NCBI GenBank assembly: GCA_030765685.1
Contig: JAVCCB010000015.1
Span: 8,113-72,112 of the forward strand
Direction of reading: 5' to 3'
Length of the DNA stretch: 64,000 nucleotides
From: Candidatus Tantalella remota
GTDB lineage: Bacteria; Omnitrophota; Gorgyraeia; Tantalellales; Tantalellaceae
Shown piece by piece: positions 2-24,000 of this stretch. Made by a program: the position numbers and the translations under genes. The notes below the pieces were generated by a model that had not been told where the DNA came from, ran no database searches, and saw only the letters and a program-made list of their open reading frames with translations. The stretch's first letter is position 1. Each line of letters begins with the position of its first letter.

Positions 2-3000
2 AAACATAAAGGAACCCTCATAGAGAAAGAAGCTGTTTTTCACGAGTTGTGGGAGAATAACTTGAAAGAAAAGCACGGGACATTGAAGGCGCATCAACTT
101 GCTTCGGCGATGCAGTCACTGAACACGGAATTCCGTGAAGAAGGTCAGACTCTTACACGTTATCATTTGGCGCAGGTCACAAGTGACTTGACCGCGGCGG
201 AATTGCAGTCATTGTTGGCAGAAGACCGTGGAGCTATACGCGAGCTTATTGGGGCAGAATTAGGACCGGTAGCAAGAAGCGCCATCGAAAGGTATGAGGG
301 GCTGGTGCAGGACCAGGCGCGTATTCAGCTCGCTCAGGCCAAAGCCGAAGCCGAAGCAAGATCCCATAAAATTGCGAGGGAAAAGGCTCGGGAAGCTAAA
401 AAAGGCCTTACAGAGTCAGAAATTGGTGAAGCTGCGGACAGAATTGTCGACAGACTTATAGCCGAAGGGCGTACGAGTACAGAAGACATTGATGAGTATA
501 TTCGGGCCCAGGAGAAGTCCTACGCGCGTACCTCTAAGGCATCTCAACCCTGGCATTACATAGACGATATCGCCAGAGAAGAGGGAATGCTCCCAGCTGT
601 CCGTATTAAGCTACTTGTCGAGATATTTGTTGGAGTAAAACAAAGACTTGCAGCGCATAATCAAAAAGCGAAAGCCGCCGCCGTGGAAAAAGCCAGAATA
701 GCCAAAGCCGAAGCCGCCAAAGCCGAAAAGGCTGCGCCTGCGGCAGAGCGTGTAGTGTCACTAGCTGAGAAGATGGAACAGAAAATGAAAGATATAAAGA
801 AAAGGCAGGACGACATACGGAAGAAAAAAGAAAAGCGTGCTCAGGCAGAAAAGAAGGCCAGAAGGGTTGCGGCGGTTGGAGATATACACGGGAATCTGTC
901 CAAGCTGAGAGAAATATTGAGAGAACTGACCGGGAAGGGAAAGAAAAGAGCGGATAAGATCGTTTTCTGCGGAGATTATATGGACAGAGGCGCAAGTGGG
1001 ATTGCAGTTGTGGAAGAGCTGATGAAACTGCAGGCAGACGGGAATGAAGCCGAATTTGTCATGGGAAATCACGATATGATGTTTCTTATGGCGATGCTCG
1101 CGGGGGATAGTACGGCATTTTATAACTGGCTGCGTAACGGTGGGGTTGAGGTGATGAAGGAACTTGGGATTTCTCAGGAAGAGGCGATGGACAATATCTC
1201 AAATCCAAGAAAGTTGTTAGATCTGGATAAAAGCGGAAGGCTGAAAAAGATAATGGGCTGGATGGTCGAGAATCTTCAACTGTATCATGTTGACGAAAAT
1301 GGGATGCTATATCTGCATGCAGGTTTGCCGGTTAACAGTAATGGTCAGCTGACCCTTGAGTATGGAGGAAAAAGAGGTCTTGAGGCTCTGGATAAGATGC
1401 AGGAAGACCTGCGGAAGGATATGAAGAATCTTGCAGAAGGCAGAGAAGCCGAGAGTGACATATTTAGAAATCTGGGCGGTAAGGATTCTCCTTTATGGGT
1501 GAGAGGATGGGAGGAGAATCTTAAGAACCGGGAGCAGGTGAAGGGACTATGTGATCAACTCGGGGTCAATGGTATAGTTTTCGGACATACGAGGCAAGAT
1601 GAGTTGTTGAATATTGATGGGATGATATTCGGGATCGATCAGAAAATATTTGGTGATGAGGGAGGTATTCTTTTTGTCGAAGAGGAGGTCTTTAAGTGGA
1701 AGTCCATGGCTGTCGCGGGCATGAAAACTGTGGTTATAGGCGGGATAAAAGGCGGGCAGTATGCGGAGCTGGATGCTGAAAGCGATAATTTGACAAATGA
1801 AATTGGTCTAATGGAAAAGGAACTTTCTATTGAAGAAGAAGCGCTTGCAGAAATGTTGGCTGAAAAGGAACGCCTGGAAAAAGAAGCTGTCGAAGTTGAA
1901 AAGAAGGCGGCCCGGGAAGAGGTAACGGAAGAGCAGGTAAAACTTGATACCGCGTTAAACGCTTTTACTGATCAGGAAATGACCGATTTTATTGAGTTTA
2001 CGGATGGCTGGACTTCGGCGGACAGACTATGGCTTATTGAAGAGTTGTCCATAAGGGCCTCTCCTGCGGAAGGGCTGGGAGTAAGGTTTAAACAGCTATC
2101 CCCTGTGGGTGTCCATACTATGGTCGCTCTTGTCGAGTATCTTGATGCCGACAAAAAAGTCGTAGGTAGCCGTATAGTTAAAAGAGCGGAATCCGGTGTC
2201 TCTGATGACAAAGCCAAAGAAGATCAGCTGGCGAATCAATACGAAATGGGGAAAAGGGTGTCATGGAGCGCCAGGACCTATGAGGTAGTAAGAAGATCGG
2301 GAATGCCGCTGCTCGTAATGGCCGAACAGGTACAGCCGGCGTCAGATTATGCAAGGAACGATAGTCAGGTAGCTGAGGTGAGGGAAGCCCTCGTTCGCGT
2401 GTTGGACACCATGTACGATGACGAGGAGGGACATTTTACTATTACAGATACGCAGGATGAGTCCAGGCTGATGGACAATATAGGTGTGGTTACGGGAAGC
2501 TCCGGAACGGTCGTCGTTAAGATGATAGATATGGGTAACGTTACAGAGACTTCAGAGAGCCGTGACGCGGCTAAGGAGCGTATTCTCGCCCGTCTGGATG
2601 CTGAGCTGGTGGAGACTCAAGCAGAGAAGGAAGCCGCGGAACAGATCGTGCTGGCTAAATCAGGGATAACCGAAATGATGAAAGCGCTCACTGACCCGTC
2701 AATATCCGCGGAGCGTGCCGCGGAACTCAGGGCAGAACTCAACGACAGGCTGAAGGCCATGGAAACGGCGATTGCCCTGGCGAGGTCTAATCTGGGAGAG
2801 ATGCCTGACGGAAAAGTCAAGGCGCAGTTTTTAAAAGACATCGCCGCACTTGAGACTGATCTCGCCTACATTCAGGATTACCAGCCCGAAATACATCTTC
2901 AAAAAGCCGCCCAGCGCAGAATAGAAGAAAATCTCAAAGGGAAAAAGACAGAGAACCTTATAGCTATAGCTAAGGGGCAAAACCTGGATGCGAGGGAACT

Positions 3001-6000
3001 TGCCAGAACGGCGCTTGTTCTCCTGCTGATCGATGGCGGTGTGGATCTGCCCGAAGAAGCGGACGTCCTTTTGAAGGATAAACCCGGTCAGGTGCTCTTT
3101 ATAGAGGCGTATATGAACGCGGACCAGGGACAGAGGAGGATTATAGACGGGATACTTGAGTCGGCTCTCCTTGAAAAAAAAGGGACAGAAGTTTTCAAGG
3201 GAGCGGTAGATGTTACCAGAAGTGTAGTGCAAAGGCTCAATGAAAGTATATTGGACAAGGAAAAAGACCTGAGAAAAAGACTAGATGAGATGAGGGGGAA
3301 GGGCGATGCGGAGGCGCAGCCTATTGCCCTTTCCGGCCAGGCGCGGGATTCTGTCGAGATAGAGGCCGAACTGGAAAAGCAGCGGGCCATTCTTCAGGGG
3401 CTTAAAAAAAGGCTTATTCATTTGGCCGATAACAAGAGCTTATGGGATGAGGATATTACCAGCTACGAATTTTCCGATTTGAAGGACCTGATCTCGAAGA
3501 CTGGGAGACAGTTGGATAGTGCTATGGGAAAGTGCATGGATGATGTCAGGAGCAGGGTCGTGGATCTCAGGACAAGCATCCCGTGGCGCGAAATAGAAAC
3601 GACTCCCGTCGGGCAGAAAAGCCAGGTCATAGAACATGAGGGTAGGTTTATTCTTATTTCTACCGCGGAGCTTAACGGATACAAAGAAAGCCTGATAAAC
3701 GCGGAAAAGGAAATGCAACTGGAGATGATCTGTACGCGCCTTGATGTGGCCGAAAAAATGAGGGAATTGAGAAGTTTCAGGAATATACTGAATATGGGAA
3801 AAAAGAAAAAAACAGGTCATGCTATAAAAGTCATACTGGAGAGATGGGCCGAGGTGTTGAGGCAGGCCGGAGTGCCCGAAGCCAGCATCAAGGAGGTCGA
3901 AAAGCATATCAGTCGTTTCAGTCTGAGAAAGGCTGAAAGTATTATAGAGGAATTGCAGGAGTTGACGACAGAATTTCAGAGTACGGCAGGTATAACCGGT
4001 ATGGAACTTATTAAAAACCATGTCGGAGCTCTTGTTTTTGAGCTTAAAAAGAGCGTCACGCCAGGGACTATCGGCAGTGATGTCGGCGAGGTAACGGATG
4101 AAAATCTAATGAAAACCAACCGGGAGGTCACGAAAGAATTTATATCTGCCCTTGGAATTCTTAAGGAAGACGAGCGCCTGGCAGGTATCATAGATCAGAA
4201 AAAACTGGACGAGTGTAACCGGCTTTCTGGTGAAATACTGAAAGAGATAGAATATCAGATAAAGACGAAGAAGGACCGTTCAGGTCAAATAACCTCGAAG
4301 ACGGGGAAGCTGCTAGGCCTCATGAAGAATATGTGTTACGGAAGAAGCGTCGAGATGATAGTGGATATTTTAAAAAGTGAAATGAAGGACGCAGAGATCA
4401 CTCAGGCAAAGTTAAGTGAGGTTTTTGGTGGATTGGGCATAACGGGCCGCAAAAAAGAACAGTCTATTAATTCGGTCCTGGTTGAATCACTGACCAATGA
4501 GGACAGGTTCGCCAACCTGGCAAAAGAGATATCTAATTACATCGCTACCGGACTTGTGGGAACAGATCAGTTTGAGAAGTTCTTCGGTGAGAGCGACCAG
4601 GTGAAGGGCGCACTCGGGGATATTTCCGTGGCCGTTAGAGTTGGAGAGATCATCAGGGAAAAGGTGAGAGGCGCGGACGGAAGGGGGAGGGAGAGTTCTT
4701 CCGACAACCTTGAGAAAAGGCTGAATAAGAAATTTGACGACCTGGACGCGAGAAGGAAACTCGCTGCCTGGTACCAACTGGCGGCGATAACGACGGAGGG
4801 CAAATCACCGTTCGTCCAGCAGGTGGAAGCCGGGTTCTTTATGGCCGACAGTTTTTTTGTGGATATAGCTACCGGAGCGGGAAAGACCCTTGCTTTTCCT
4901 CTCCCGAATATCATGAACACCGCACGGGGGCTTAACAGCGTGCATTTGGTCACGGACGATTATTTCACCGAAAGGGATTTCAGGGAGACGCGTTATCTTT
5001 ACGAGATGATGGGGTACAGTGTTGATTATATGGGCGGTAACGAAAAAAGTGTGAAGAAGGCATCGGAAAGGATAGAGAAGAACGATGTTGTTATCATGTC
5101 TTACTCCGCGCTCAGTTTCACCTGTCTTGAAGCCGTCGGAAGAAAAGCATTACCCGAGAACCAGGAATGGTTCAAGCTCCTGAAACAAACCAGGCTTACG
5201 TTCGATGAATGTGACGTCGCGCCGTATCTTTCGGATTTTATAATCGCCGCCCAGCAGAACAGGGTGAGTGTAAGGGAATACGTAAGGTATCTGGCGCTTA
5301 TAAAGACCGTGAATAAACTGCAAAAGGAAGGTCAATTGAAAAAGATAATATCCCAGTTAGAGAGGAATTTGATTGCCGTTAAGGCAGTGGCCGAGGACGA
5401 GGCGGCGCAAACGGAGCAGGCGGAACAGATCGAGAAGCTGGCGAAAATGTTGGGACTTAAAAAGGGCGCTGTGGCAGTTGCCGAAGGCAGACTTTCGATT
5501 GAATCCAAGGAGGGGAAACGCGAGCTAAGACCGGAAGACCTGAGCAAACCCGTTTCCCTGGAAATCGAAGGCCAGACGTTCGTCTTAGCTCATTCAAAAG
5601 AATCAGGGTTCGTGGTGAAGAGGACCGAACTGATCGGCGAAGAGGTAAAAGATGCCAGGGGCGCTATGATAGATACCACTTCAAAGACGGCAACGGTGGA
5701 TGACGGGACATGGGAGGTAGTGTCCGATATGCTCAAGAAGGTTTCTTCGGAACTTTCCGAGATGTTTTCGGGGATAGAGAAAGAGTCTTTCGCGAAGGAC
5801 GAGTTTCTTGACTGCGTCAAGGCGCTTTATATCGACAAGCTGGGCGTTAATTATGTGCTTGAGTACATGGATGAACGCGCGTCGAAACCTATAATCCTGA
5901 ACGAAAGGGATGGGGAGATAGTGATCGAAGATACGGACGGGAAAGAGTACCCGGCTGAATTCCAGACCAGCCTGCAGGAAGACGGGTCATTCAGGGTGAC

Positions 6001-9000
6001 CTACCGGGGAGAGGAGAAGGCGCTTCTTAACGAAGACTTTTTCAAGGATGAAGAGGGTGAGGTACGAGGTGATCAAGATCAAAAAGTGATCATAAACATA
6101 GGCGAGAAGAGATACAGGGTCAGGCGGGCTGAGAAGGGCGGATATCGCTTGCAGGAAGTATCCATGGAGGTCGTCCTTGTGGATGAGCAGACTTCGCGCA
6201 GGCAGGGTGGACAGAGAAAGGACAGGTTCCACACTTTTTATGAGATGAAACATCAGCTGGGCGAAGGGGATATGCCTGAGGTGAGGCCCGGGAACAAGAG
6301 TACGGAATTCCTTTCTTTTACCGACATAGTTGACTTCGTCGATTCAGTTGGCGGCGCGAGCGGATCTGTCGCCACAGCGGCATATGTTATGAATGGGCTG
6401 TTCGGTGAAAAATCTAACGGAGTGGTAAGGATGAACCCCGCTTTTTCCAAGAAGGGACCCGATAGAATGCCAATATTTATCACGAGCGACAGGGTGCAAT
6501 GGGATATGGCCCTCAACAAGATCAAAGATATATACACGGCTTCTCCTGGAGCCGCTATGATCCTCTATTACGATGATATATATCAGGCAGAAGCTTTCCA
6601 GGTCGAGCTAGAGAAGATGATAGAGAGTGAAAAATTGGCGGATACCGCGGGCGGTGAGATAACCATACAGCTTTTTAAGGAAGAAGGGGCGAAGGAGAAC
6701 GAGTTTGTCGAGAAGGCAGGAAAGAGGAACACGATCACGCTTTCGGACGCGAAACTCGGCCGGGCGACCAACGTCATTCTTTCCGAAATAGTAGGTTTTA
6801 TTGCCAAGCACGGCGCCGCCGCCTTAACAAGACTTCTCAGGAGAAAAAAACTGGGGAGCGAGGAATATGACGCGCTATTTCTGCGAGAGTGGGCTGAAGA
6901 CGCGAAGACAGATATTGACGAGGTGAAAAAAGAGCTTGCCAAGGAGGGGTATTCCGCCGAGGAGGTGGATGTTAACCTGGAGAAACTTAAGAAAGGCGAA
7001 AGCGTCAATGCGGTCTTTCTTCACGTTCTCAAGAAGACTATCGACAAAATGAACGGGATAAACGAAGAAGTCAAAGGTCTGACAGACCTGCTTACCGATG
7101 AGAACGGAATATTCTTTATGTCCGATTACGGTAAAAGGGCGGCAAAGTGGAAGGAGATAGAGGCTTATATGAGCAAACTAGGAGCGGGGAAAGAGAGCGA
7201 AGTATGGCGTATCGTAAAACAGAAATATTGTGACGGCCTTTTTCTTATTGACCTTTCTCCGGATCTCAGCGACCAGGGAAAGGAGCAGAAATTCGGCCGG
7301 GCAAAGAGGCAGGGTGACACAGGATCTGTCCAGCCTTTTTATTCTCTCCAAAAGGGAAGGAAACTTTACGGGATGGTTGAGAAGATGTACAGCTCCCAAT
7401 ACAACAAAGACCTTACTCCGGAGCAACGAGAGGCGGGAAACGAGAAATTTGAAGAATTCGAGGAAAATATCGAGGTGATAGAAAAGCTTCAGGAAAGAAT
7501 AATACAGAAAGGACGTTTCGGGAAAGATATTAGCGATAAAGACATGGAGGATTTAGTCCGGCTACAGCGATATTTTAACGATGTCCTCCGGGAAGTCAGG
7601 ACGGGGCTTCAAAAGAGGCGTGACGATGGAAGAATAAAAAGGGCTAAGAGGGATCGCGCCACCCAGAGGCTGCTTAACGAGGTAAGGGACCTTCCGTTAG
7701 TTTTTAACGAGAAGGTTCGAAATAATCAGGAAACTGCTCGAAGGTGGCTGGTGGAAAGGGTGGACAGTATTCTGGATCTTTATATGAACGACATGAGTCA
7801 GGCGATTGACGACTCGGGGGTGGTCGATCTTGAGGAATTACTGGGGGTCATTGAGGAACACTTTCACGTGGACCTGGGCATGGAGAACCTGAAGTCCTTT
7901 CAGGTGGCACTGGAAGGGAAGAACGCCCGTGAACTTTCCACCGTGCGGCAGGACCTGAAAAGCGGCCTTCTGGAAGCACTTTACAGTATGGGAAGTGTTA
8001 CCTTGAAGGAAGGGTCCGGGGAGCTCTTGTCCGGTAACATTTCTGCCCGCCTGGAGCTTGATGACGAAGGCAAATTGAATGTAGAGGGTATGGAACATAT
8101 CCATCCTGATGGAAAGAGGGTCGAGATAGGCAAGGATCTTTACAGGGTCATATATGAAGATGACGGAAGCATGGTGGTTGATGGGCTCGGCAGAAGATTG
8201 AAATTTACACATGTCTACGGGACACAGGTCGTAGAACTTGAAGGCGGTTTTCAGGCAGCTGTTACGGAGCTCTACAGCGAAGGTCTTGACAGACTCAAGA
8301 CGGAGGTTATCCAGGAATCCCGGGAAAAGGGGCCGGAAGGGGTACAGGCCGACCGGGGAGACATAGGGTTAACAAAGGCTGCGATAAAAGAGTCCCAGAA
8401 ACGTTTTAAGGATAAACGCGATAAAGCGGTGGATTACGCTACAGAAGAAGGAAGGGAGCAACTGAAGAAGGCTTCAGGAAAGATCGATAAGAAACTTGAC
8501 GGGATGACGGACGCTCTTTCGGACCAGAGAACTGAAGCCCATGACCAGAGGGAAGCACTAAAAGAAGAAGGCAAATTAAAAGCCGTTGTAATAGAGAAAA
8601 AAGTCACGGTAAGGCGCGGTTTGATGAAACTCGGAGAGGATGAGGCAGGCGACGTAAAAGTCGGGATCCGGGCACCGAAAGAGGTAAGGTCCGGAGGCGA
8701 GGATATTTCCGGGGAGGCTCAGGCCCAGGTAATGGTGGCGGAGTCCGAGGCACCATCAGGAGTCAGATATTCGGTATCGATCGATTTTGCGGAGACTGTG
8801 GAAGATGCGAAATTAGAGAGCAGGGACGCGGAAAAGGCCAGGAAAATAGAAAAGGCGGTGGAAGACCAGAAAAAGGATGTCGAAGCGGAGGACGAGAGCG
8901 GGAAGGAAACAGCACGGAGCCATGAAGAGGGCATGCATGTGACGCCCTCCGGGGCCGATGTTTTTGTTACGGTTGAGAAGGAAAAAGGTGCTCCCCTGAG

Positions 9001-12000
9001 CGATGCGGAGTCGATCCAGGGTATAGCAGGGGGCGCCGGTGCTCTGCCGCCCAGGAAGTTGGGTGCACCTTTCGGTATGGTGATTATGACCACGGGGGAT
9101 ACCCTTGAAGGGCTGAATAGTGCCGAGAGACAGGAGATCGCCACGGCCCTGCGCGAGAAATTTTCAGGATCTGTGCCGAAAGGGCAGAACCTGTACATCT
9201 CATTTGACGGTCTCGGTGAAGGCAGCCTGGATGAGGCGACAGGCAGGATCTCTCCGGGGTTTACCGGAGTGAAGATATTTGACGGGACTTCTTTCCAAAC
9301 CCTGTCGAGAGTGAGGGAAGAGGCGCAGAAGGATGAAGCGCCCTCCCAGGAAAGGATGGAAGAGATCCTGGGGCTCGCTGGCGAAAAGGGTAAAAGGGTG
9401 TTCAGGAAGAAGGTGGGAGAAACTAATTTTCTTGTTACTGTCGCGGATGACGGAGTCACATATGTCAGGGAGCTCGGGCCTGATGTTTACGAGCAGACGA
9501 GAAGAGAGATCTTGCGCGCGAATTCGGTTCTTTCCGCCGCCGACGCGGACAGCGTAAACGCGGGATTGCGACCGGAAGAATATATGCTGAATGCCCGGGG
9601 CGTTTTTATACAGACCGGGGGGGAAGCCAAGATTCCCCCGGTAGTAGATCTGGTAGATGTAATAGCGAAAAACAATCCCGAAAAGGAAAAAATGGAAAGA
9701 CTTCCCCTCACAAAGGAGACGGGGCTTCCACTGCGGGGTTGGAAAGGCGAGAACTTTACAGGGAAGATGCAGTTTGTGGGACGGAAACTGGCGGTTCCGG
9801 TGGAATGGGTTAAATGGAAAGCTATAGGATTTGGGCGGTGGTGCATAAAGAAAAAGGACCGGGTTAAATACCGGTTTGGTCTTGCGCGAAAAGGGAAGAA
9901 CCCGGTTTCTTCGGTTGGGTGGGGGGTCTTAAGGATTATGACCCTTCCGGTAAGTATTGGTGAGTTCCTGGTGAGGGACGCGTTGAGAAAATTCAGCCTT
10001 TGGGGACAAAAAAGAAAGATAGCTTACAGGCGCACGCTGGAGCGCTCGAAAGACAGATATCGAAGAGGCCCCCGGTATAACGCGTTGATGTATCATCTTT
10101 CTAAAGTCAGCCCTGAAAAAAAGGTCGTGAAGGCTCTTGCGAAAACGGCTATCGCGCTTATAGACCTGTTCACGGCCAAAAGGGATATTACGGTCATAGG
10201 GACATCTCTCATGATGAGTCTTTTTTATGTAGCCGCTTTCGTGGGGGGGCTGGTTTACGTTCTTCTATGGCAACTTCCTAAGATGATCTTAAAACTTTTC
10301 TTATATCATTCCTGGCATTACCCCTATGCCAAGGTTAGCGGGTGGATGGAAAAACGGGTCGCGCAAAAGGAAAAACTTCCGGAAAGGGATGATGTTATTA
10401 AGATGAGAGCGCCCGCGGCTGTCCGGGAAGGGAGATTGACGGATGAGGAAGCCGTCACCGAGGCCGAGACCTTAACTGGTAGAAAGTTAAAAACGGCGGA
10501 CAGGACCGTGGTAGAAGGAGATGTGGGGGGGTACGATGTCAGTACGACACCTTTCTTCGTGCACGGGAAAACCCATTCCGGCAGGGTCCTTCAAATAGCA
10601 AAGTTGTTGAAGTACCTCTCTCAGGCGGACCTTTACGACACACATCCATTGTTCAAAGGGACATATAGCAGGATCGCCGATGTGCTGTTCGAAATGTCCG
10701 AAGATGCCGAAAAGACTGGCAGAAAAGAAGAGGCGGAAAAACTGCGGCTTAACGCGCTGAACTACGCGAAGATCGCTGTAGCGGTCAATCGTGACGATAT
10801 GGACTCGGAGGCGTTGCAGGGGATCTTAGCCTATTCGCTCGGAGATAAGGACACGGCGAAAAAGATCTTTGCCCGGGTTATAAAAAAAGGCGCGCCCCGG
10901 AATGACTATATGAGCATGGTCTGCGCCCTGCAGGGGAAGATGCTCGAAGAAGCCGGTGATCATCGCGCGGCCGCCGCGGCTTACAACAAAGCAAGGCTAT
11001 CGGAGGTGTTCGTTCTGGGCGAAAAAATATCCATGGCCGAGAGTAAGGCTCGCTGCATGGAAAAGGTAAAAGCCAAACCGGAAAAGGATGAGGAAACTCT
11101 TGAAGGGATGCCGTCTAAGGGGAAGGTCCCGGCAGGTAAAAAATTCTCGATGAAAGAACTTTTTAATAAGAAGACCCAGACGGTCATTATGGTCGTGACG
11201 CTTATTGTCGTAACACTGGCTCTTTTGAAAGTCGCGCCCTTAATCCTGCTCGCCGGCGTTATTAAGGGGCTCCCTCTAATTGGTGGTATAGGAGCGGGGA
11301 TAGAGTCCATTGCCGCCGGTATAAGCCTCGGCCAGCTATTCACCAGCATCGCCGGAATGAAGGCTCTTATGGGTATCTCAGGAGGGCTGTATACTGTCGG
11401 TATGCTTACATCTCTTGTGACCAGGTTCGCGCTGAAACCGATGGCTGTGGGCGCATGGCGGAAGGCGCGGGATCTGGTTACGGATCCGTTCAGGATACGC
11501 AGGGCTCTGAGAAATGAGATTAACGCGGTGAAGCGGACACCGGATAAGGCGGATCCCAGGATCGAGCTTATTAAGGCATATGAGCTTTTAGGGGAGAAAA
11601 GAAAAGCCAGAAAACTTTTGAATAAGACAGCCGGGATGGTACGCACGGGCAGGCTGGCTCCGGGTGAGGAAGTGAAATTTGTCGAGTTCCTTATGGATAA
11701 GGGGGAGAAAAAAACCGCCGAGGAACTGTTTCTTATAACCTATGCGAGGGCAGCGCCTGAGGACCGGGAAAGGTTCATGGACGCAGTGCCAGTGCTCCTG
11801 AGAGGAAGACTGGCGCTTCAAAAGGAGCCGGTTGATGTGGTAAGGATGAGGGGGGAGCCCGAAGATTTTATAGAAATTGCCCTCTATTGCGCTAACCAGG
11901 TTCTCGCGCTGGACGAAGATAACACTGAAGCGCTTCTGGTAAAGCTCGAAGCGCTTGCCGGGAAATACGCTAAAGAAAAGAACATGGAGGTTCTTGGAGA

Positions 12001-15000
12001 ATACACGGACGTCCTGGAAAAGTTAGCGGGTCCCGATGCGGTGTTGGACACGGGGCAGGTCAAGAGGTTGGAGTCTGTCAAGGTTGAGTTCAATGTGGGG
12101 GACGGGGTATCGAGGGTTCAAGCCGACGAGGTAAAGAAGATTTCCGACGCTAAAGATGTTAAGGAAGTTGTGGCGGAAGAAGAGCCGTTAGAACCGAAGA
12201 TATATTCGGGTTCCGAGGCGGACAGTAAGAGAAGAAATGATCTGGAAAATAAACAGAAGGGATATGCGCGCGGAATTTTTGCGGTATTCAATTCCCTTTT
12301 TAGAAAAAACTTGAACGCGGAAGAAAGACTGGAGCTTGCCGAAATATACGCTAAAGACGGCCAGTATGCAAGGGCTATAAGGCAACTGAATAAGGCAAAG
12401 ACGCTGTCTCCCGAGGATATGTCAAAAGCCGCCAAGTTACGTGTATTCTGTACCTTGAAGATGATCGAAAAACCGCGATGGAACCCGACACGCGTATTCA
12501 CCAGATACTGGACACTGAACAGGTCTTTAAAACGCCTTACGGCGTTGGGTGGAGATAATGTCTTGTGGGCGCAATGGGTAGCCAGCACACAACCGGTTTC
12601 CTTTTTTGGCATGTTAAGAGGTGTCGATCCCGTAGCGGCAGAGAACGCTTTTGCGGATATAGGAAACGCATACCGGGCGGCCCCTGAGGACATGACAGGG
12701 GAGTCGGAAAAATCAATATTGGAGTCCGGATTGAGGGTTCTCGTGTCTTCAAGAAGAAAAAATGAAGCGACAGCGGCAGCTGTTCAGAAGATTCTGGACT
12801 CAGGTGATATCCCGGAAGACTCGGAGTTGTTCAAGAAAGCGTCGGAGAACCTGGAGAACAAAGAGGGTGATATCGCGCGAAAGGCCCCGGGAAGGTTCTC
12901 TACGGTGCCTCTCAGGTTTAGGCTGTGGGATGATAATTCGAAGCATATAAATGGGATAGACGACAAGCTGGCCGACGAGAGGCGTAATAAAAAAGGGGAG
13001 AAGGAGCATAACCCCAAGTATGAGAGAAACCTAAAAAAGAGAGAAAAACTAGAAAATAAGCGGCACGCGATCGAAAAAGATAACGCCGAACATGAGAGAT
13101 CCATTTTGCGGAGGTACACGTTGTATATGAAGGGTAAGACGGCACTTCCGGGGGTTTTGTCCAGGGTGGTTGAAAGCGGCAGGTTTAAGGATTTTATGTC
13201 CACCCTTGCAGGTAGAGACGATCTGACTCCGGAAAAATTCAGGATGGAACTTGACAATATGTCCCGTCTGAATGACGCAGATTCCGCCAAGGATTTTCTT
13301 GAGGTCGTATTCACAGAGATGTGGCTTAGTAACGGGTTTGGACGGGACTATAATGCTGATAATCCGCCAGTTGGTGTTGTGACACTTGGTGGCGGGATTA
13401 TGAAGTATTGTGAGAGGCTTATCGAAATGTACAATAAGCCGGGTAACAGCTATTTTAGGGGAACTCTCATCGAGGCGATGAGAAAGATCTCCAAATACAG
13501 AGAATTCGGTGTATTAGAGGGGGGGCAGTATGACCGGATCCCGGTCATGGGTGAAGTTATCAGACTCCTTTCAGCCAATGCGGCAAAGGATGAGGCTATG
13601 GAGGACCTTATCAGGGAACTGACTACCGACGCGATGAAGGAGAGAGGGAAACTTCTGGGTGACGCGAAGAAAGAGAAAAATGCCGTGAAAAAGCGGAAAC
13701 TTGAGGTAAGGGCGTCAGACTATCTTGAAGATCCCGGGACTGTTTTCGGAGGGCTTTTACGGTTTTACCGCGCAGGAGCTTTAGTCACCGGACTTGACGG
13801 GGAACAGAGGAATGCCAGAATGGAACCTGTGTTTACGCTGGTCAGCGCATGGTACGGGAGCGCGGCCGCGTCGGCACTAAGGGCGATGATCAAAAGAGCG
13901 GTTGCGGAGGAAGAGGATCAGGCTGTTTTGATCAGGAAACTGGAGAATATACTTTCGGATATAGATTTTACCGGAAACGGTAAATCTCTGGTAAAAAGAC
14001 TTTTAGGAAAACAATACCTCTCTCCTGAAGATAAAATAACGCTACTGTCTAATTGCGGGGATATTCTCAAAACGGGAGAGAAATTGCGGCGTGTTATGGA
14101 AATGGCTATACCGGGAGTATCTTCCGGAAAGGAATATCTTTATGTACTGAAAAAACTCAAGGAATTTCTTAAAAGATCAAATGACAGCGACATAACATCC
14201 TCTAGAATAAGAGAGTTGTCGGACGAAGTCCTCCTGCCCCTCCCTCCGGACACTCCAGAGGTTCTTTCTGTAAAAATAGACATTATTGCTCTGGTGCTAG
14301 ATAAAAGAAAGGACATTACAGCAAGTGACCGTTCAGGATTGGACAAAACTTTTGGTGAGTTGAGGTCCAGCCTGGCCAAAAAACTGGATGAAAGAAGAGC
14401 AAATGAGGAGGACGGCGAGGTAAGGGCTACTCTCATGGAGATGCGAGGACTTTTAAAAGCGTCTGAGATATACGAGAAAAACGGTGAGTTTGACAAGGCC
14501 GAGGAGGTTCTTAAGAGGGCGATAGGTCTTTCCAACGCTCTTTTTGAAAAGAATATGGAACTCAAGAAAAAGAGCAAGCCGATCCTTACCATAACGGATG
14601 ATTTTAAGAGCACGGCGTCTGAGCTGGCTGAAAGGATGACGGGACTTCTCAGAAAACGGGGAAAAAATTATGAGGCTGAGATGATGAGAGGTTCAGGGTA
14701 TAAACTTCTGGCTGGCTACGAGATAGCAGTTGAGGGAGTTCCCGCCGGTGAATATTTAAAAAAAGCGAGAGAGGCGCTCAATAACGCTGACAAACTCAAA
14801 CCGGGGCAGAAGGAAGTCTCACTCGGCAGGATGGAGGTGGACAGCCTTTCTTTGCAGATAACCATGGATAGGTCACAGGAGTTTTCCGCCAGGCACAAAG
14901 AAGAATCGGAAAAACTGGAAAAGCTAGAAAAGGAGATAAAAGATCTGAGAGAAACTATCAGTAAAGCCGAGGTGAAGAGGGCGGCGGATATAGAACAGGC

Positions 15001-18000
15001 ACAGTTGAACCTCGACGCGGCGGTGGCTGCGGGTAAGGAAGATGTTCGGCTCCTGAGGGAGAAACCTCTGGCGGCAGAGAAGCAAGAGATGACCGACCTA
15101 TTAGTTGAAGAAGCAAAAAAGACGGCACGTGCCACTGAAATTCGCCGGGAAGTCCAGGACCTCAGTGATAAAAAACAGAAAATGGAAGCTGAACTGGATA
15201 AAGTCGCAGGAGCAAACAAGGCCGCTATGAACGAGTCTATACGAGCGGCTTTCCGGACCATAGCCAATGGCGGGTATGATCCGAATGATGACGCGGTTAC
15301 GAAGGCGATGGGGTTTCTCTCTCGTCTTCCCGCTAGATTTAATAACCGGATTTTGCGGCAGGTGGATATGATGAGCGTTCGCGCGGATATTCTGAAAGGA
15401 AAAGAAAGCATCAACAGGAAGGGGTTTATTGAAAAACTTCTGATGGATATATATTTCAGGGGAGAATGGAAGATGTTTTCATCCGGGCTGGATTCTTTGA
15501 GGGCGAATGCCGGTGAAGATACCATAAAGCTTAACGTCCTGGGCAGGGAAAGGGTGTTTGATTCGGCAGTACTTATCGATTATATCGTAGAGAACACGCC
15601 GGAAAGTGAGAGACCGACACTGACCGGGAAACTATCGGAAATAATGACCGCGGCCAGATTAGCCCGGAATCCTGTTCTGCAGGCGGAAGCGTTCGCGGGT
15701 ATTTACGGGACGCTTGAGCTTGAAGGGGACATCAAACTGACAGCGGATGGCAATTTTGCGGAAGGAGGTTCTATAAAAAGTGATGAAATTAAAAAGGATG
15801 TCCTCATACCGCGTGTGAAGAAGATCTTTGAAGAAAAACAAATGCCCGGTTCGGTAACCGGCGGAACGGACATGCCGGCTCTCCTCATATCATTCATGGA
15901 AAACATCAGGAAAAAGGGGACAAAATGGGATGATCTTAAAAGCTCTGGCAAGAGGGTGGAAAGAGTAGAACTTGTCATGGACCTGAACATAGAGATGGAA
16001 TCGCCCGACACGGAAACTGAAGGGATGAAGGGAAACGCCAGGGCCAGGTTCTATGGCGGTATTAGGGAGAGGGTCGGCAGTGCGACCGAAAGAATAGCAG
16101 TGATAGGGAAACTCGGAAATGCCGAAATAGAAAAAGAAGACCCCGACCCCGAGCAGATCGAGAAACTCGCTGAAGAACTCTTTGATATCGATGAAGGGTC
16201 TGATACTGCCGGATATTTTCGTGGGGTCGCCCGATACATTTCAGGCGTTTCCGAAACAGATGAGGCTGAAGGGCTAAAGAGGTTTGCCGTTATCGAGCCT
16301 CTTAAAAAATACCTCAAGTCTAATCAGGAAGACGAGACGGCGCGTGTGTTTCTGGCAGAAGTCTACGTGGATCTTCACTCTGAACTTTTTGGGGGCAACC
16401 CACGGGGGATCGCGACCCATCTGGAAGTCTCTGAATATTTTTCATCACTATCCGACTTTTATCTGGAAAAGTCCCGGAAAAGCAGGGCTGAAGGTGATAT
16501 GGACGAGGCAGAGAGTAGCCTGGAGAAGGGTGCAGCCTATATCGTGAGGGCTATCATGTCCAATCCCAGAAACGGTGCTTTGGTGGTTAAGAGGATGTAT
16601 ATATCTAAAGAGATGGGACGCGATGATCTGGTTGTGAGTGATGCTGAATGGGTTTTAGCAAGGGTGGAAGTGTCGAAGGAAAAGAGGATGTTCAATCTGA
16701 CAGTGACGAAGGAAGACAAAAAAAACACGAAATTATTGCTTGCCGACATGGAGGCGAAAAGGGGGGATCTTGAAGCCGCGCGGAGGCGACTTGGAAAAGG
16801 AATATGGTTCACGGTAGGGAGCCGGATGATCACATCGGGTTCCGCGGCAACAGGGCTTGTCATGGCGGCAGTTTCCGCTCTTTCAGGATATCTTGTGCCG
16901 TTGGCTCTAAGAACGATCTTGTCCTATGCTTCGAAGTTCGCTTTTGAAGGTGCGCTTTCGGCCGCGGCGTCATTCACAGCGGGTAATCTTTATGTGATGG
17001 GCATAGTAGGATTGTTGACGCTGGGGATACTCGCATATCGTTTTACCAGGGACAGGGTGTCTGTCGAAGTGGCAGCGAGGATGTACCTGGTATATACCGG
17101 CCTTGGAAACCAGCAGATGGCGGGAAGATATGAAAAATATCTTTACCGGATCATGGGAACGGCTAAGGATTCACTTGAACCGGAAATCCTTGAAAAGGTG
17201 GCGGACGCGCTCGAGGCCGGAGGAACCTACGAAAGTCTTTCGGGTGCTATAACTCTCAGGGAGACTAGGAAGGCTTCGTCTTTTGTCGATAATGACGCTG
17301 AAGACAGGAAAATAGCGGATCTGCGCGTCAGGCTTTCCTCGATGAAGAAACCCTGGAGTGTTTTCAAGCCCCGGACATGGAAAATACGGAGATCTGTCCG
17401 GGAAACGGAAAAGAAGGAAAGGCGGGAGAACCTGTCCAGCGCGAAAAAGACGTCGCCGGACCTGACAACCATTGCAAATGACGCCTTGATCAGGATGAAT
17501 ATGGAAGATTTGAGAGCTCTTGAAGCGAAGCAGAGCCGCTTTAAGAGATTGGGTGGAGTATGGTTGATAGGGAGGTTTCTTAAGGATGTTGCGCCCGGGG
17601 TAGCCGCACTTTATGTCAGCAACTCCGAACTGCTCTTTGAGATGTTCGAAAGCGAAACGGATCCGGCAAAGCGGGATGAAGCCGTGTTGGAACTTGAAAA
17701 AGCACGCGATGTATTCAAAGGAGAGCTTTCATCAGAGCATCGGGATCTTCTTTCCAGGATAAACGTTAGTATCGGGGACGATATGGCTAGGGAAGGGCGC
17801 TATGATGAGGCGCTTGAAGTTTACGAGATAGCGGTTGGCACAGATACGGGCAATCCCGACAATGCTAAGGCTTATCTCGGAAAAGCGGACGTTCTCGAGA
17901 AAATGGGCGCTGATCCTTTGTATGTAGCATCCGAGATGGAAAAAGCCCTGCAAAAAGACGCCGCTCTTGACGGGGATGGAATGGTTTATTCGAGAAGACT

Positions 18001-21000
18001 TTTTGATATATATGTGTCTCAGGGAGATGTGGAGGGGGCCGGGCGTGCTACCAGGGGGATGGAGGAAGTGCTGTTGGACCGGGAACTTGAGACATTACGG
18101 CAACTTATCGAGAACATAGGTTCCGAGGCTGAACAGCTACAGAGGATAGTAAATAGGGGGGTACGCATCAGCGAATTGGAAAAGAAGATCGCCGCTGCGG
18201 AAACCCGATATAAGGAAGCCACGGAGGGCTTATCTCCGGATGTGGTCAGCGGCCAGGTTGTTTTTTCATCTGAGATAACGGATATAAGTATAGATAAGCA
18301 GGAACTAAAAAGAAGAAAAGACCTGCTCGCCCGTCAGAAAGAGGAATACCTTGCTTTGATAAAACAAAGGGAGATCTTTAACCAGGTCATAGGCAACGCC
18401 AGAGGAAAGCCTGCTGACCAGGGTATAAGAGATCTGGAAGTTCTGGATGAACTTCTTGATAAGGACCTCAGGTCTGACAGGAACATAATCGTGCCGATAC
18501 ACCTCGCCTTAGCTGAACTTTATAGAGATACGGGAGAACATGAAAAAGCGCTGGATCACGCCAAAAGAGTATATATAAGCTATTTAGAAATAAGCCCCGC
18601 CGGATTGCCATCTTCCGGGCTCTCGCAGGAGGAATCTATATTGCTGACCAAAGGGCAGTTGCTATATGCGGATCTTCTTCTTGGCACAGGGAAGAAAGAG
18701 GATCTGGATGAAGCATTCCTTCTGCTAAGACGAGCTTCGGAGGAAAGCGCCTCGCTTAACGAAAAGTTTAGGGACACGCGTGTCTCGGATGAAGCTATTA
18801 ATGTATTTAAGAAGGCCCTGAGAGCGATGTCGGAATCGGATATCACAGATACCGAAAGGTCCGGGCTCCGGACAGGCGTGTTTTATGTGTTTGCCAAGCT
18901 GCCGTCACCGGCGAAGGATACAGAGGCGGCCGGTATGGTGATTAATCTGGCCATGGAAAACATTGATAAGGAGGCAAGAGACTTTATCACGGCCGTGCTC
19001 TTGGAAAAGAATGAAAGTGACGCCGTGAAAACGTCTTTTCTGCAAGTTATGGCGGAAAAGACGTCCGCAAACGGGGACGTCAGAGAAAGCCTGGAAAGTT
19101 TCCGCGGAGTCCTGGATTCTGCGGAATTTCAGAATGCCACGACCGGCAAGCTCAGGGCAAGCGCCGGTCTTTTATCAGGGATGCTCGAAGGGAAAGGCAG
19201 AAAAGCGAGAGCGCGTATACGCGAAGCTGTAAAGACCGACGAAAGTCTTGAAACCCTTTCTTATATCGCGCACCTTCTGGCCGGTACATACGCCTGGTGG
19301 AATCCGGCGGGATGGATTTCCCGTTGGAGGACAAGCAGGGATCCGGCTGTACGGGCGCAGAACCGGGTCGTGAGGGCAGGTAAAGCTTTGGCTACCGGCT
19401 GGCATCACACGGCGGTAAGACATTACGAAACGGCGACAAAGATGGACGATTCTCTGAAGGGGGATGAAACACTGCGCAATGCCCTTGCCGGCGCGTACCG
19501 TAACGATAAGGGAAGTTTATGGAAGAGGCTAGTCAGGGCCATGGGAAGACGTCTGGACCGGCAGGAAAAAGCTGTGTCATGGAGAATAGACCGTTTGAAA
19601 AAGGCCCTGGATACGGCGGTTGATGAGACCGTAAAAGCCGATATCAAAATGGAGCTTGTGGGTGCCATGGAGGGGATGGCGGATGTTATCCAGGCACGAC
19701 TCGAAAACCCGGGCCTATTGGGCAGGATGATATATTCAAGACGCGAAAAAAAGCGTAACGAATACAGGGCGGAAAGTTCAAAGATAATGACAGAGGTCGG
19801 TGATCTTTATCTCGAGATCATGAGGTTTCAGCAGAAAAATGGAGAAATCGATGAGGCGAGGGACTCTTATGAAGAAGCGAAGAAAGCTTTTCGAAAAGCA
19901 GTGAAATTCGACGGTAGAAACCGTCAGGCGGAAGAAAGAATTAAGTCTCTAGGAGAGGAGATGTCTGTTGAAAAAAGCGCGGAGGAGCTTGTGAAAGAAG
20001 CATCGGTGGAACTTGAATCAGGAAATGTCGAACAGGCGTTATCCCTTATCGATTCCGCGGTTAAAAAGGATGAGAACGCTGAAGTCCAGGATGTTTCCGG
20101 TCGGATAGAGAAGCTTAACGCGGCTTTAGACGCGTTAATGGATTATTTTGTGAGAATGAGTTTTCAGGCGGATTACACTAAGGCGAATGAGCCTGAGCAG
20201 AAAGTGAGCGTAAGGACAAGCGCGATGAACGGTCTTTCGGGCACAGCCACAAAGGTCCACGGTGAGCGTGAAGAGATCGTTGGTAAATGGCTGGAGTTCC
20301 AGACTGATATTTCGGAAGATGCCCGCAGGTCCGCGTTAGCGGCCCTGAGTGTTATGACGCTGAATAATGCTGGTAATGAAGTGCTTCAGGTAGCGGATGA
20401 TGTAAGGGAAGCTTTTCTGGCAAGATCCATGGCTCTGTCAAGAAAGTTTCTTGATGAAGGCAAGGCCGCGCAGGCTAAGTATCTTCTGGGGATACTTGAA
20501 ACGGCCGGGGATGCGGACGCAGACAGAGCAGCGCAGAGAGATTTTTTGATGTTGCGGGCGGATTTTTATCTGTTTGCGGGTGATGGAGATGTCTCGGTAA
20601 AAGATATTTCGGCAGCGGTAGGGAAAACGAAGATAAATGATGTTCTTAATGACAACCGGAGAGGGGAAAAAGAAAGGGCGATGCTTGCTATTGCCGTGGC
20701 GTCGTCGTTTGCTGATAAAGCGGGCAGTCTGAAAGGTTTGAGAGGGCGTGAGGATGAACAGAAAACTGCCATAGATAAAGCCATGATCAAGCTCAGTCGA
20801 GCCATAGATCTTGATCCCTCTAATTCAAAGGCGTTGGATATTTTGGCAGGACTTTATGATGAGAAGATGCTATCAGACAAAAAGTTCTTTGATAAAAACA
20901 GCAGACAGATAGAGAAGTCAGTAGGGGGTATCCCCGAGAAAAGGGCATCCCTGAACGTTCTCAAGACGATCTCGGGATTATCCTTGAGCGGGGAGATCTC

Positions 21001-24000
21001 AGGTCAAAAGGCCGATATAGCTTCCGGGGCATTATTAAAGCTACAGGATGTGATAAACGTTGATGAGCTGTCGGGAGAAAACGCTGCGGATTTCATGAGA
21101 AGTTTATTGCCGGGGCTACATGCTGCTGCTGTTGCTTCCGATGACGCGGATTCGGCAGTTAAGATGGCCGGTATAGCTGAAACAGTGAACAGTATAAGAG
21201 AAGAGTATGCAAAGGATGAGATATACAGATACAATGCGGATATTGATATTGTATGCAGGCTTGTTTCCGCTTATCTTTATACTATTGCCGGGCAGGTGGG
21301 GAAAGCCTCGGATATCCTTAGTGATATACACCCAATAAGGGCGCCAGACAGGGCTGAATGGTGGTTTGTTCAGCTGCGTATCGCTTTAGACGGAGAGGAT
21401 ATAGACCGAGCCGAGTTCGCCTTGAAAGAAATAGCGAGATTTAATCCCAGCCTTACGCCTATTGCCAGAAAGATCCTCGCTGAAAAATATCAGGCGGGCG
21501 CCGCTTCCATGACATCAAGCGCTAAATTGATGTATCTTAAAAAAGCTGTTATGCATTGGCCGGATTTTGAACAGGCGCACCTGGATCTGGCCGCGGAGTA
21601 CGACAGTATGAAGAAGGGGGACGATGCCCAAGAGCACCGGTCGGATGCGCGAAGGGCAGAACAGTATGCTAAGAGGAACGGGCGGTCCAGAATGCCGTCG
21701 GCGTTTAGTATGACGAAGAAAAGTGAATTTATAGAGCATGTATTTCGCGCCCCGGTTGTCGAACAGAGTAAGCATTTCTGGATACCGATGCTGGGGCTTA
21801 TGGGCGTGGTATTTTTGAACTGGGCTATGAATTTTCTGCCAATGGGGAGTCTTTTATCCGATACGGTAATTAAGTTGGGATTTGTTCTGGCACAGATATT
21901 TTTCAGTCGCGCTTTTGTTAACAGTCACATAGACAAAAGGCTTACGCCGGGAATCGTATCGCTCGCTAACATATCTATGAATGCGGGGCTTCTGGCGATG
22001 GAGATGTCACCCATATACCACATGATGGCCTATTATGTACTTTCCATGGTAGTGCATGCCTTGATGAACGTAACGGTTTTCAGCGTTGACCGGATGATGG
22101 GGCGTAGGGCCCTCGGTTACGCGACAATAGAGACGGAGGGAAAGCCTGCTGAGGTAAGTGAGGACGCGGTAGCACCGGTGAAAAAAGTGCGTCAAGCGGA
22201 ACCGGGCGAGAAGGATTTTATAATTCTGGCCTCGGCATATAATGAGGGCGCGGTTATACAGGGGGCACTGGAAAAAGCCAGGCAGGGCGGTTACATCGAC
22301 AGTCTGGTGATAGTCAATGACGGTTCTACAGATGATACGGGCAGTATTCTTGACGAGTACGCGCAGTATGGACTCGTTGTCATACATAAAGAGAATACCG
22401 GAAAACCCGATTCGATGAAACAAGTTCTCAGACAGCTTCAGCAGAGTGGTGAGCTTCCGGAATTTGTAGTTACTACTGATGCGGATTCATTCTTTGCCGT
22501 TAAAACAGATACCGGAGTATCTGTAATGAACAGTTTGTCCGAAGCCGTGGAATATTCTCGCGGGAAAGGACTGTCAGCGGTCGCGCTGGATATCATGCCG
22601 ACTATGGAGAAAGGGTCTTTTGTTGAGCATATGCAGACATTAAAGTGGCGTATGACTAATAATTACCTGAGATACGTAGGGGGTAGTGTCGCCGGCGCCG
22701 GTGGACTGTATAACTCACAGCGGTTACTTTCAGCTATGGAGCAGCATTCAGGACGTTTCAGCGCGGAGGACACGGAACTCGTAAGTATAATCAGAAAAGA
22801 AGGCGGCAGTACGGGGAAATACAGAAAAGGCGTCGAGGTGAGGACAGATATCCCCAGGACCATGAAGATGTTTTTTAATCAATACAGGAGGTACGGACGC
22901 GGGTTTATAGAGCAGTTCAAGTTGAAGGATTGGCGAACGTCGTCGGCGGTCCTTTTTGGTCTAGTGCTGGGTATTTTTGCCGTGTACTATTATCACATTT
23001 CTTTAGGGCCAGGGGCGCTAGGGTTGATAGTTTCGGCGGGGTTGGTGCCCAAATTCGCGGCTATCATATATATGGCTTCCATGATCCCGATGATACCCGT
23101 TATTGTGAACATATGGCGGGACAGAAATATGTCTATTTCCCGTAAAGTCGCACAAACTTTATATGCTCCGGTATATCCGGTATTTGAAACTCTTATGTTG
23201 ATCGTGGGGACTTTGGCGGCTATAGCGGATATGGCGAAAGAAAAGCTCACTAAAAAGGCGAAAGCTCCGGCGGCGAAACCCGCGCCGACAGTGCCTGCTG
23301 TCGTAATCGTGGGTGTTGTGGATGGAGATGAAGAGGATATCACGCGATTGAACGAGCAAAACCCCGGTATCGAATTTTTTGCTGTCGATCGTGCAGGTAC
23401 GGAGACTATGACGGCTGTCATGGAATCTATGGCAGGTCCCCGAACCCGGTTTCTTGTGGATATGTCGCCGGACGTTCTTAGCGGTAATATCGGCAGAATA
23501 GTGAAAGACGCCAGGATACAGGCGTTCGCGAATGAATACCCGTATCTTGCCGGTCTTGATTCGGCATCAGTCGCGGCTTTGCAGGATGCCGGAGCCAGAG
23601 TGGCCTTGAACGTAATTACCGGGGGGCTTCCCGATGAAGCGCCGGTCAACGATATGTTGGGAGAGCTTTTGGCGGCGTACAAGCCGGGGGCTGAAGCTCC
23701 GGCCGGTACTGAGCTGACTTCTGAGGCGCAGGAAACTCTGGTACGTCAGGACGTGGAAGCCGAGAGTGCCGTAAGAAAAGCCGCGAGTAAAGGCGAGCCG
23801 ACAGAAGCCGCCATGGTTACGGCGAAAGGCCTGCTTGCGAATATGCGGGACTTTATAGCAAGTGTTAAGCCTGGTGATGAGCCCGATGTTTTGGATAGAC
23901 ATGAGGATATAGCTATGGCTCAGACGACAGAAGACGATCTTCTCGGCCTTCTTGGGGCAGTGGGCACTGCTGATCCGGCGCTCGGACCCCAGACAGTTGT

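Follow-up and report, generated by a model that had tools for sequence, protein, structure and literature searches.

Divergent SecA_DEAD domains (PF07517) have been described within giant proteins of Omnitrophota, and within some actinobacterial ones, by West-Roberts et al. 2023 (bioRxiv 10.1101/2023.11.21.568195). According to these authors, the SecA-like domains of giant proteins lack the scaffold and wing of SecA and form a long-branched clade that is separate from the normal SecA of the same genomes, and their proposed role is the export of the giant protein itself. A second preprint reports a 20-protein PF07517 architecture cluster among the long proteins of Omnitrophota (bioRxiv 10.64898/2026.06.07.730766). 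Here, we analyze a 64-kb stretch of contig JAVCCB010000015.1 from Candidatus Tantalella remota (hereafter the window, numbered from its first nucleotide), in which the open reading frame (ORF) ORF1 (47..24619, + strand; 24.6 kb, 8,190 aa) bears a SecA-like module. A sequence-only reading of this stretch had placed a SecA-like translocase ATPase at nucleotides (nt) 4750-6800, inside a giant membrane protein, and had suggested that it might power the export of the giant polypeptide itself or of a substrate. The observation is real, although its boundaries required correction, and the interpretation is supported in part. The module is a SecA-derived ATPase motor, made up of two nucleotide-binding domains (NBD1 and NBD2), which lies inside a giant multi-pass membrane protein and is not free-standing, and it belongs to the published class of divergent SecA_DEAD domains in giant proteins. 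Because West-Roberts et al. had proposed self-export, the interpretation re-derives a published hypothesis, and because the basic observation has been published as well, what we add is a refinement and not a discovery.

Results

The module descends from SecA and not from a generic superfamily 2 (SF2) helicase. In a Pfam search, SecA_DEAD matches ORF1 with 54.6 bits (E 1.3e-14; gathering score 24.6), whereas the generic DEAD model (PF00270) stays under its cutoff of 26 with 22.7 bits and Helicase_C (PF00271) gives no match. The NBD2 model P-loop_SecA (PF21090) falls slightly under its cutoff of 27 on ORF1 itself (21 bits) and matches 9 of the 11 family members, with a best E of 2.7e-24; we judge that an NBD2 of the SecA type, with motifs III, V, and VI, is present in ORF1. 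The seven best NCBIfam matches of ORF1 are all secA or secA2 models, which score 27-55 bits against cutoffs of 725-1493. The canonical secA equivalog TIGR00963 reaches 55.2 bits (cutoff 800), and the SecA2 models TIGR03714, TIGR04221, and TIGR04397 reach 41-50 bits (cutoffs 725-930). Among the profiles that the sequence-only reading had named as checks, PF07517 therefore matches, PF21090 and TIGR00963 remain below their cutoffs, and the preprotein-binding model PF01043 finds nothing.

Direct comparison with SecA sequences and structures leads to the same family. When the module is compared with all PDB sequences by phmmer, the significant matches are to SecA and SecA2 only, in three collinear pieces, and a profile of the family against PDB also finds SecA/SecA2 only (E down to 6.5e-43), over SecA residues 54-200, 319-506, and 541-580. 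These results bear out the claim that the ATPase is specifically SecA-like. BLASTP against E. coli SecA, a pairwise alignment that had been suggested along with that claim, yields three collinear high-scoring segment pairs: ORF1 aa 1585-1659 with SecA 80-154 (36% identity, E 1e-9), aa 2041-2245 with SecA 332-515 (23% identity, E 7e-7), and aa 2397-2435 with SecA 553-591 (36% identity, E 0.025). In hhalign, the family (taken without its member P0014, see below) aligns with 74 canonical SecAs at a probability of 100% and an E of 1.7e-40 over SecA 64-516; motif VI is matched separately, in collinear order, and no match lies past it. An AlphaFold 2 (AF2) model of ORF1 aa 1560-2740, built from an 11-sequence alignment (predicted local distance difference test score, pLDDT, 70; predicted template modeling score 0.46), is confident for both RecA-like lobes, with the first part of NBD1 at pLDDT 73-91. 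Foldseek with this model places SecA or SecA2 at each of ranks 1-34 (E 3e-14 to 4e-6), and DinG/XPD come next (3e-4). A word-indexed protein search with ORF1 aa 1540-2470 found nothing.

Membership in neighboring families was considered and rejected. A generic DEAD-box/SF2 helicase was set aside on the score of PF00270, the missing PF00271 match, and searches that separate the module clearly from helicases. Canonical SecA membership was rejected on the TIGR00963 score (55.2 vs 800 bits), the position internal to an 8,190-aa ORF, and the undetected PF01043 and PF07516 features, and membership in SecA2 was rejected on model scores far under the cutoffs (50 vs 930 bits).

The SecA-derived module comprises ORF1 aa ~1585-2440 and probably extends to ~2580. 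All eight peptides quoted in the sequence-only reading are found in ORF1, in the order and at the places it gave, but its interval (aa ~1568-2251 of ORF1) ended too early, at nt 6800; because motif VI lies past that end, the module spans at least nt 4799-7366, and perhaps reaches ~7790. The first part of NBD1 (nt 4799..5260, aa 1585-1738; this and the following features are on the + strand) is supported by SecA_DEAD, BLASTP, and the conservation of motifs in the family. It contains the Q-motif region PFVQQ, the Walker A motif ATGAGKT (aa 1608-1614, nt 4868-4888), motif Ia VHLVTDDYFTERDF (aa 1632, nt 4940-4981), the peptide LYEMMGYSV (aa 1651), the Walker B motif DECD (aa 1720-1723, nt 5204-5215; in FDECD, aa 1719), and a strand FIIAAQQ that corresponds to SecA LIISG. 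The chain returns to NBD1 in the segment MEVVLVDEQTSRRQGGQRKDRFHTFYEMKH (nt 6164..6253, aa 2040-2069), as assigned by phmmer, BLASTP, alignment, and family conservation. The ORF1 equivalent of SecA IVDEHTGR is MEVVLVDEQTSRR (aa 2040) and not DGEIVIEDTDG (aa 1955), which lies, together with DKLGVNYVLEY (aa 1930), within the insert at the site of the preprotein cross-linking domain (PPXD). The first part of NBD2 (nt 6344..6796, aa 2100-2250; BLASTP E 7e-7, hhalign to SecA residue 516) carries motif III, GGASGSVAT (nt 6350-6376; GGASGSVATAA from aa 2102), and motif V, TITLSDAKLGRATNV. The peptide AKLGRATNVIL (aa 2235, nt 6749-6781) had been taken for motif VI, but it aligns with SecA NMAGRGTDIVL and hence with motif V. 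Motif VI is instead the family-conserved QKFGRAKRQGDTG (aa 2414-2426, nt 7286-7324), which lies with GLFLIDLS in the last part of NBD2 (nt 7232..7366, aa 2396-2440; 36% identity in BLASTP, third stretch of the PDB profile match).

Two inserts interrupt the motor. The first, of ~300 aa, occupies the PPXD site between the strand FIIAAQQ and aa 2040 (nt 5261..6163, aa 1739-2039); it is helical first and then beta-rich, and it is about twice the size of the E. coli PPXD (~155 aa). The proposal that this region contains a preprotein-crosslinking-like domain finds no support in ORF1, where the insert has no PF01043 match even at E ≤ 10 and no BLAST similarity to the E. coli PPXD. In every family member, only the last ~40 positions of the PPXD profile match, weakly, at homologous positions. 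The second insert, of ~145 aa (nt 6797..7231, aa 2251-2395), separates motifs V and VI where the short variable subdomain lies in E. coli SecA; it is helical (helices at model residues 694-837), and its aa ~2274-2340 are absent from the homologue P0002.

We note that LGVNYVLEY..DGEIVIEDTDG (aa 1930-1965) and EKRYRVRR..MEVVLVDEQTSR (aa 2020-2052) both resemble the DYIV-type hairpin of SecA. These hairpin-like segments, at nt 5834-5941 and 6104-6200, hint at a local duplication within the enlarged insert; self-BLAST for an internal duplication is not significant, and we leave it as an unproven impression.

Past motif VI, the AF2 model predicts a helix of 63 residues (aa 2497-2559) and, after it, one of 20 residues (together nt 7535..7786, + strand), and the longer of the two may be a counterpart or remnant of the long scaffold helix of SecA. 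For the scaffold, wing, and two-helix finger (PF07516, helical scaffold domain, helical wing domain, IRA1), Pfam, BLAST, hhalign, and dedicated hidden Markov models (HMMs) give no signal in ORF1's family, while the dedicated scaffold/wing/IRA1 HMMs do detect those domains in P0014. Judged from these searches, a recognizable PPXD, wing, and two-helix finger have been lost in ORF1's family or have diverged past detection. The undetected parts are those that in SecA grip and push the polypeptide and dock on SecY.

The embedding of the motor in a giant protein is shared by its relatives. When 1.84 billion representative proteins are scanned by HMMER with aa 1540-2470, just 8 matches reach E < 1e-30, all of them very long proteins or fragments of such proteins that are 29-52% identical over the matched stretches, and ordinary SecAs come next (E 1e-14 to 1e-5). 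The named relatives are hypothetical proteins from Candidatus Omnitrophota metagenome-assembled genomes (MAGs). Collinearity with ORF1 runs from aa 1240 to 7863 for P0002 (7,055 aa) and holds at ~25% identity for P0006 (7,334 aa) and P0007 (4,748 aa). Among GTDB species genomes, pattern scans seeded with a narrower family alignment (A2) find 7 loci, of which 2 are labeled Omnitrophota and 5 "uncultured Planctomycetia" (best identity 61%); in JGI metagenomes they find 5 (best identity 67%). A scan of the genome collection seeded with the single ORF1 protein found no relatives. In 7/7 genome loci, the match lies inside a stop-free frame of 2,000-6,900 codons, as measured within the fetched stretch. 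The claim of a SecA motor inside a giant membrane protein thus holds for twelve related loci and several database proteins, and their common embedding makes it a trait conserved in a family that is small and rare, and not a product of faulty assembly.

Conservation within this family is highest in the motor. The nucleotide-binding motifs are all present in ORF1 and are kept in ~10 homologous giant proteins. Conserved in the family are TG[AS]GKT, DECD (SecA DEVD), GASGSVAT (SecA GMTGTADT), LGRAT[ND]V (SecA AGRGTDI), and, as motif VI, Q.FGR..RQGD.G, whose SecA counterpart is QLRGRSGRQGDAG. The SecA-specific blocks H.VT.D....RDF.ET and GQR.D..HT.YE.KH are kept as well, and GQR.D..HT.YE is invariant. 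This conservation of the catalytic motifs extends across members that are only 25-50% identical; the D/N position of motif V varies, with N in ORF1 (GRATN) and D in P0002, P0006, and P0007. When identity to P0002 and P0001 is followed in sliding 200-aa windows, NBD1 (58-59%) and NBD2 (49%) give the two highest values in ORF1, and the remainder gives 14-46%. The retention of the motifs and the top conservation of the lobes argue for a working ATPase under purifying selection, and it is very likely that the module is a SecA-derived and probably active ATPase.

The motor precedes every transmembrane-like segment of ORF1. In a Kyte-Doolittle scan of aa 1-3360, no 19-residue window has a mean >1.4. 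The first hydrophobic segment (aa 3381-3411) is followed by a ~300-aa loop and a second cluster (aa 3708-3752), all three within nt 10187..11302 on the + strand. The motor therefore sits in an N-terminal stretch of 3,380 aa that contains no transmembrane-like segment and is on that account presumed to be cytoplasmic; ~1,580 aa of this stretch lie before the motor and ~940 aa after it. In ORF1, P0002, P0006, P0153, and P0007, motif VI and the first hydrophobic segment lie 889-965 aa apart, and in each of these five proteins the first segment is followed by a ~300-aa loop and a second hydrophobic cluster. Judged from this layout, the motor is most likely made before any membrane segment, remains in the cytoplasm, and is tethered by the segments that follow.

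Around the motor, ORF1 carries a series of other domains. From the N- to the C-terminus, these are a metallophosphatase, the SecA-like ATPase, the first hydrophobic segments from aa 3381, the TPR arrays, and a GT2 glycosyltransferase. The metallophosphatase (aa 273-515, nt 863-1591, + strand; Pfam Metallophos E 2.7e-15) is of the PPP family (calcineurin/PP2A-like), with weak PDB matches to PP2A and a Rhizobiales-like phosphatase. The many TPR repeats occupy aa ~4090-7000, and the GT2 domain (aa ~7396-7484) has hydrophobic segments on its flanks. For the flanks of the motor, at aa 521-1560 and at aa 2741-3400, neither Pfam nor PDB sequence searches give a credible match.

ORF1 is the first of three very long + strand ORFs that lie in tandem across the window. 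It is separated from ORF2 by a 317-aa ORF (nt 24923-25876, + strand) whose first 120 aa match an IS200-like Y1 transposase (PF01797, E 1e-10). In ORF2 (26545..57873, + strand; 10,442 aa), at least 27 segments are hydrophobic and transmembrane-like; Pfam gives no match at E ≤ 1e-3 in the first ~9,500 aa, and a PPDK_N (pyruvate phosphate dikinase ATP-binding) domain lies near the C-terminus. ORF3 (~58981-64000, + strand; at least 1,670 aa) runs off the end of the window, and this fragment embeds a complete Glu/Leu/Phe/Val dehydrogenase at aa 868-1264 (ELFV_dehydrog_N + ELFV_dehydrog, E 1e-63), which recalls those giant proteins of Omnitrophota that have been described as "multi-enzyme metabolic". 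Common to ORF2 and ORF3 is a paralogous N-terminal module of ~600 aa (36% identity, E 3e-115; nt 26659-28473 and 58987-60759) that opens with a signal-peptide- or anchor-like stretch, IVVAVIFLHQQTGWAQA and LVVAGIFLYQQIVWAA, respectively; ORF1 has nothing comparable. A second SecA-like module was sought in ORF2 and ORF3 and was not found: BLAST of ORF1 against ORF2 is empty, and phmmer with E. coli SecA matches ORF1 only. No rRNA, tRNA, marker gene, or Rfam match was found anywhere in the 64-kb window. The host reads as a bacterium of the Planctomycetes-Verrucomicrobia-Chlamydiae superphylum, probably an Omnitrophota-like one, the relatives of ORF1 carrying Omnitrophota or Planctomycetia labels.

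All three giant ORFs show, on their coding strand, a uniform and strongly positive GC skew (0.13-0.26) together with a positive AT skew. The opposite strand inside these ORFs contains many long ORFs (150-310 aa), which are probably by-products of composition.

Discussion

We infer the function of the ORF1 module from its sequence, as follows. The two RecA-like lobes, with their intact nucleotide-binding and hydrolysis motifs, would form an active ATPase that is held at the membrane by ORF1's own downstream transmembrane segments. ATP turnover could be coupled to the handling of unfolded polypeptide and so to the insertion or translocation of segments of giant proteins; candidate clients are the ~300-aa loop that follows the first transmembrane segment of ORF1 and the giants with signal-peptide-like N-termini, ORF2 and ORF3. 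The substrate might be gripped by the ~300-aa beta-rich insert in place of SecA's PPXD. Taken as a whole, an active SecA-derived motor with this translocation or insertion role is a tentative proposal that falls somewhat short of an even chance. That the motor acts in protein translocation or insertion is, as a point in itself, doubtful, because the clamp and finger that execute SecA's mechanism are unrecognizable.

Several observations weigh against the translocation proposal. Neither the PPXD clamp nor the two-helix finger nor the wing is detectable in ORF1, and ORF1 itself may need little export, because its TPR arrays and its GT2 domain, which needs nucleotide sugars, may stay in the cytoplasm. 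The synteny with giants that carry signal peptides is seen in this window alone. In addition, the topology comes from a crude hydrophobicity scan alone and not from a trained predictor, and the quality of the AF2 models is moderate (pLDDT 70-72, 7-11 sequences). A further suggestion is that ORF1's family is a distinct, membrane-tethered SecA offshoot that has exchanged the ancestral polypeptide clamp for the ~300-aa beta-rich domain, has shed wing and finger, and serves as a built-in or locus-dedicated translocation or insertion engine for proteins whose length is beyond the housekeeping Sec pathway, be they loops of ORF1 itself, the two downstream giants with signal peptides, or both. We consider this unlikely; if true, the family would represent a Sec-like accessory system that has been fused into its cargo or its scaffold.

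The same lack of PPXD, wing, and two-helix finger beside a retained motor would fit a SecA-derived ATPase that had been repurposed for work other than translocation, either as a cytoplasmic, ATP-driven conformational switch, remodeler, or chaperone that organizes or regulates the scaffold's phosphatase, TPR, and glycosyltransferase domains or as a nucleic-acid-dependent SF2 enzyme. We consider this possible but short of probable. The sequence on either side of the motor (~1,580 aa upstream, ~940 aa downstream), free of any transmembrane-like segment, fits such a role; yet the first transmembrane pair follows at a conserved spacing, and the module recurs specifically in multi-pass membrane giants. 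The SF2 variant must also contend with sequence and structure searches that separate the module from helicases (DEAD below cutoff, no Helicase_C) and with Pfam and PDB searches of ORF1 and its flanks that detected no nucleic-acid-binding domain nearby. By analogy with SecA2, the motor could instead be a dedicated accessory motor that acts in trans on ORF2 and ORF3, with ORF1 also supplying a glycosyltransferase as accessory Sec loci do. ORF2 and ORF3 do follow ORF1 on the same strand and begin with a ~600-aa module bearing a hydrophobic signal or anchor, and the GT2 domain is part of the same polypeptide as the motor, but we regard this arrangement as rather improbable: the synteny was seen once, the related loci that were fetched lie wholly inside the homologous giant ORF, the IS200-like transposase ORF sits between ORF1 and ORF2, the SecA2 models score far below their cutoffs, and the window contains no SecY2 or Asp genes.

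If the module were a decayed, catalytically dead SecA remnant kept as a structural spacer, the very low identity that it shows to SecA (20-36%, in short blocks), its 55 bits against the 800 of the NCBIfam secA model, and GRATN in place of GRGTD in motif V would be readily understood. Every catalytic motif, however, is kept across homologues of 25-50% identity, the motor lobes are the best-conserved parts of ORF1, and family members differ at the D/N position of motif V, with D in three of them; we consider a dead remnant very unlikely. An artefact, in which a canonical secA was joined to its neighbors by misassembly or frameshift, found no support and is rejected as having next to no chance of being correct, given that different MAGs and metagenomes show the same embedding at 12 independent loci, each time in a stop-free frame thousands of codons long, that database proteins 4,700-7,500 aa in length show it too, and that the module sequence is far from any canonical SecA.

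A SecA-derived motor that recurs in giant proteins is the most concrete lead on how polypeptides of 10,000 to >100,000 residues are made, inserted, or exported. ORF1 offers a compact case of this kind (8.2 kaa) that has about a dozen homologues; its motor is better conserved than any other part, precedes every membrane segment, and is without the canonical substrate clamp. These features make it a manageable construct (~1,000 aa) for ATPase and SecYEG/polypeptide-binding work.

Comparison with Known Systems

The motor of ORF1 follows canonical SecA (E. coli, B. subtilis; PDB 2fsf, 1m6n, 3din) in the order of its NBD1 and NBD2 motifs and shares with it the SecA-specific blocks VT.DY...RD, DE.TGR...G.R..D..H...E.K, and GR..RQGD.G. 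Like canonical SecA, it has insertions at the PPXD and variable-subdomain sites and a long helix after NBD2. Unlike canonical SecA, which is free-standing at ~800-1000 aa, the module is internal to an 8,190-aa ORF; its insert at the PPXD site is unrecognizable and twice the size, and no wing, finger, or C-terminal tail is detectable. An accessory SecA without a helical wing domain is known in SecA2 of Mycobacterium tuberculosis (PDB 4uaq). That protein is soluble and ~780 aa long, and it has a normal PPXD and two-helix finger, unlike ORF1.

ORF1 resembles the class of West-Roberts et al. in being a highly diverged SecA DEAD motor within a very long multi-transmembrane protein in which Pfam finds no scaffold or wing. 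The TPR, glycosyltransferase, PPDK_N, and Ser/Thr-phosphatase-like domains of the window recall the giant proteins of both preprints, and the relatives are proteins of Omnitrophota MAGs. At 8,190 aa, ORF1 is below the size thresholds of the surveys, which are >30,000 aa (gene >90 kb) in West-Roberts et al. and at least about 10,000 aa. The class as published has an overlapping SecA preprotein-binding domain, whereas none is detectable in ORF1's family, and several close relatives of ORF1 are labeled Planctomycetia. The position of the motor differs as well: it lies in the N-terminal third of ORF1, upstream of all transmembrane segments, whereas in one Dockerin-type sequence of West-Roberts et al. 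(and, according to that paper, in Archaeovorins) the secA-related domains follow C-terminal anchors.

The relative P0014 (MGB2706011.1, 5,111 aa, from a Candidatus Omnitrophota MAG) is a giant Omnitrophota protein whose SecA-like motor is, as in ORF1, internal and is related to that of ORF1 at E 3e-11. Unlike ORF1, it has many transmembrane segments upstream of the motor, and it embeds a complete SecA (aa ~2229-3100), with the PPXD profile at E 1.4e-25 and scaffold/wing/IRA1 at E 4.5e-13; it is the one member of 11 that is matched by Pfam SecA_PP_bind and SecA_SW. P0014 is thus an exception to the published survey, which states that giant proteins' SecA-like domains are without scaffold and wing, and it may represent an intermediate between canonical SecA and the family of ORF1.

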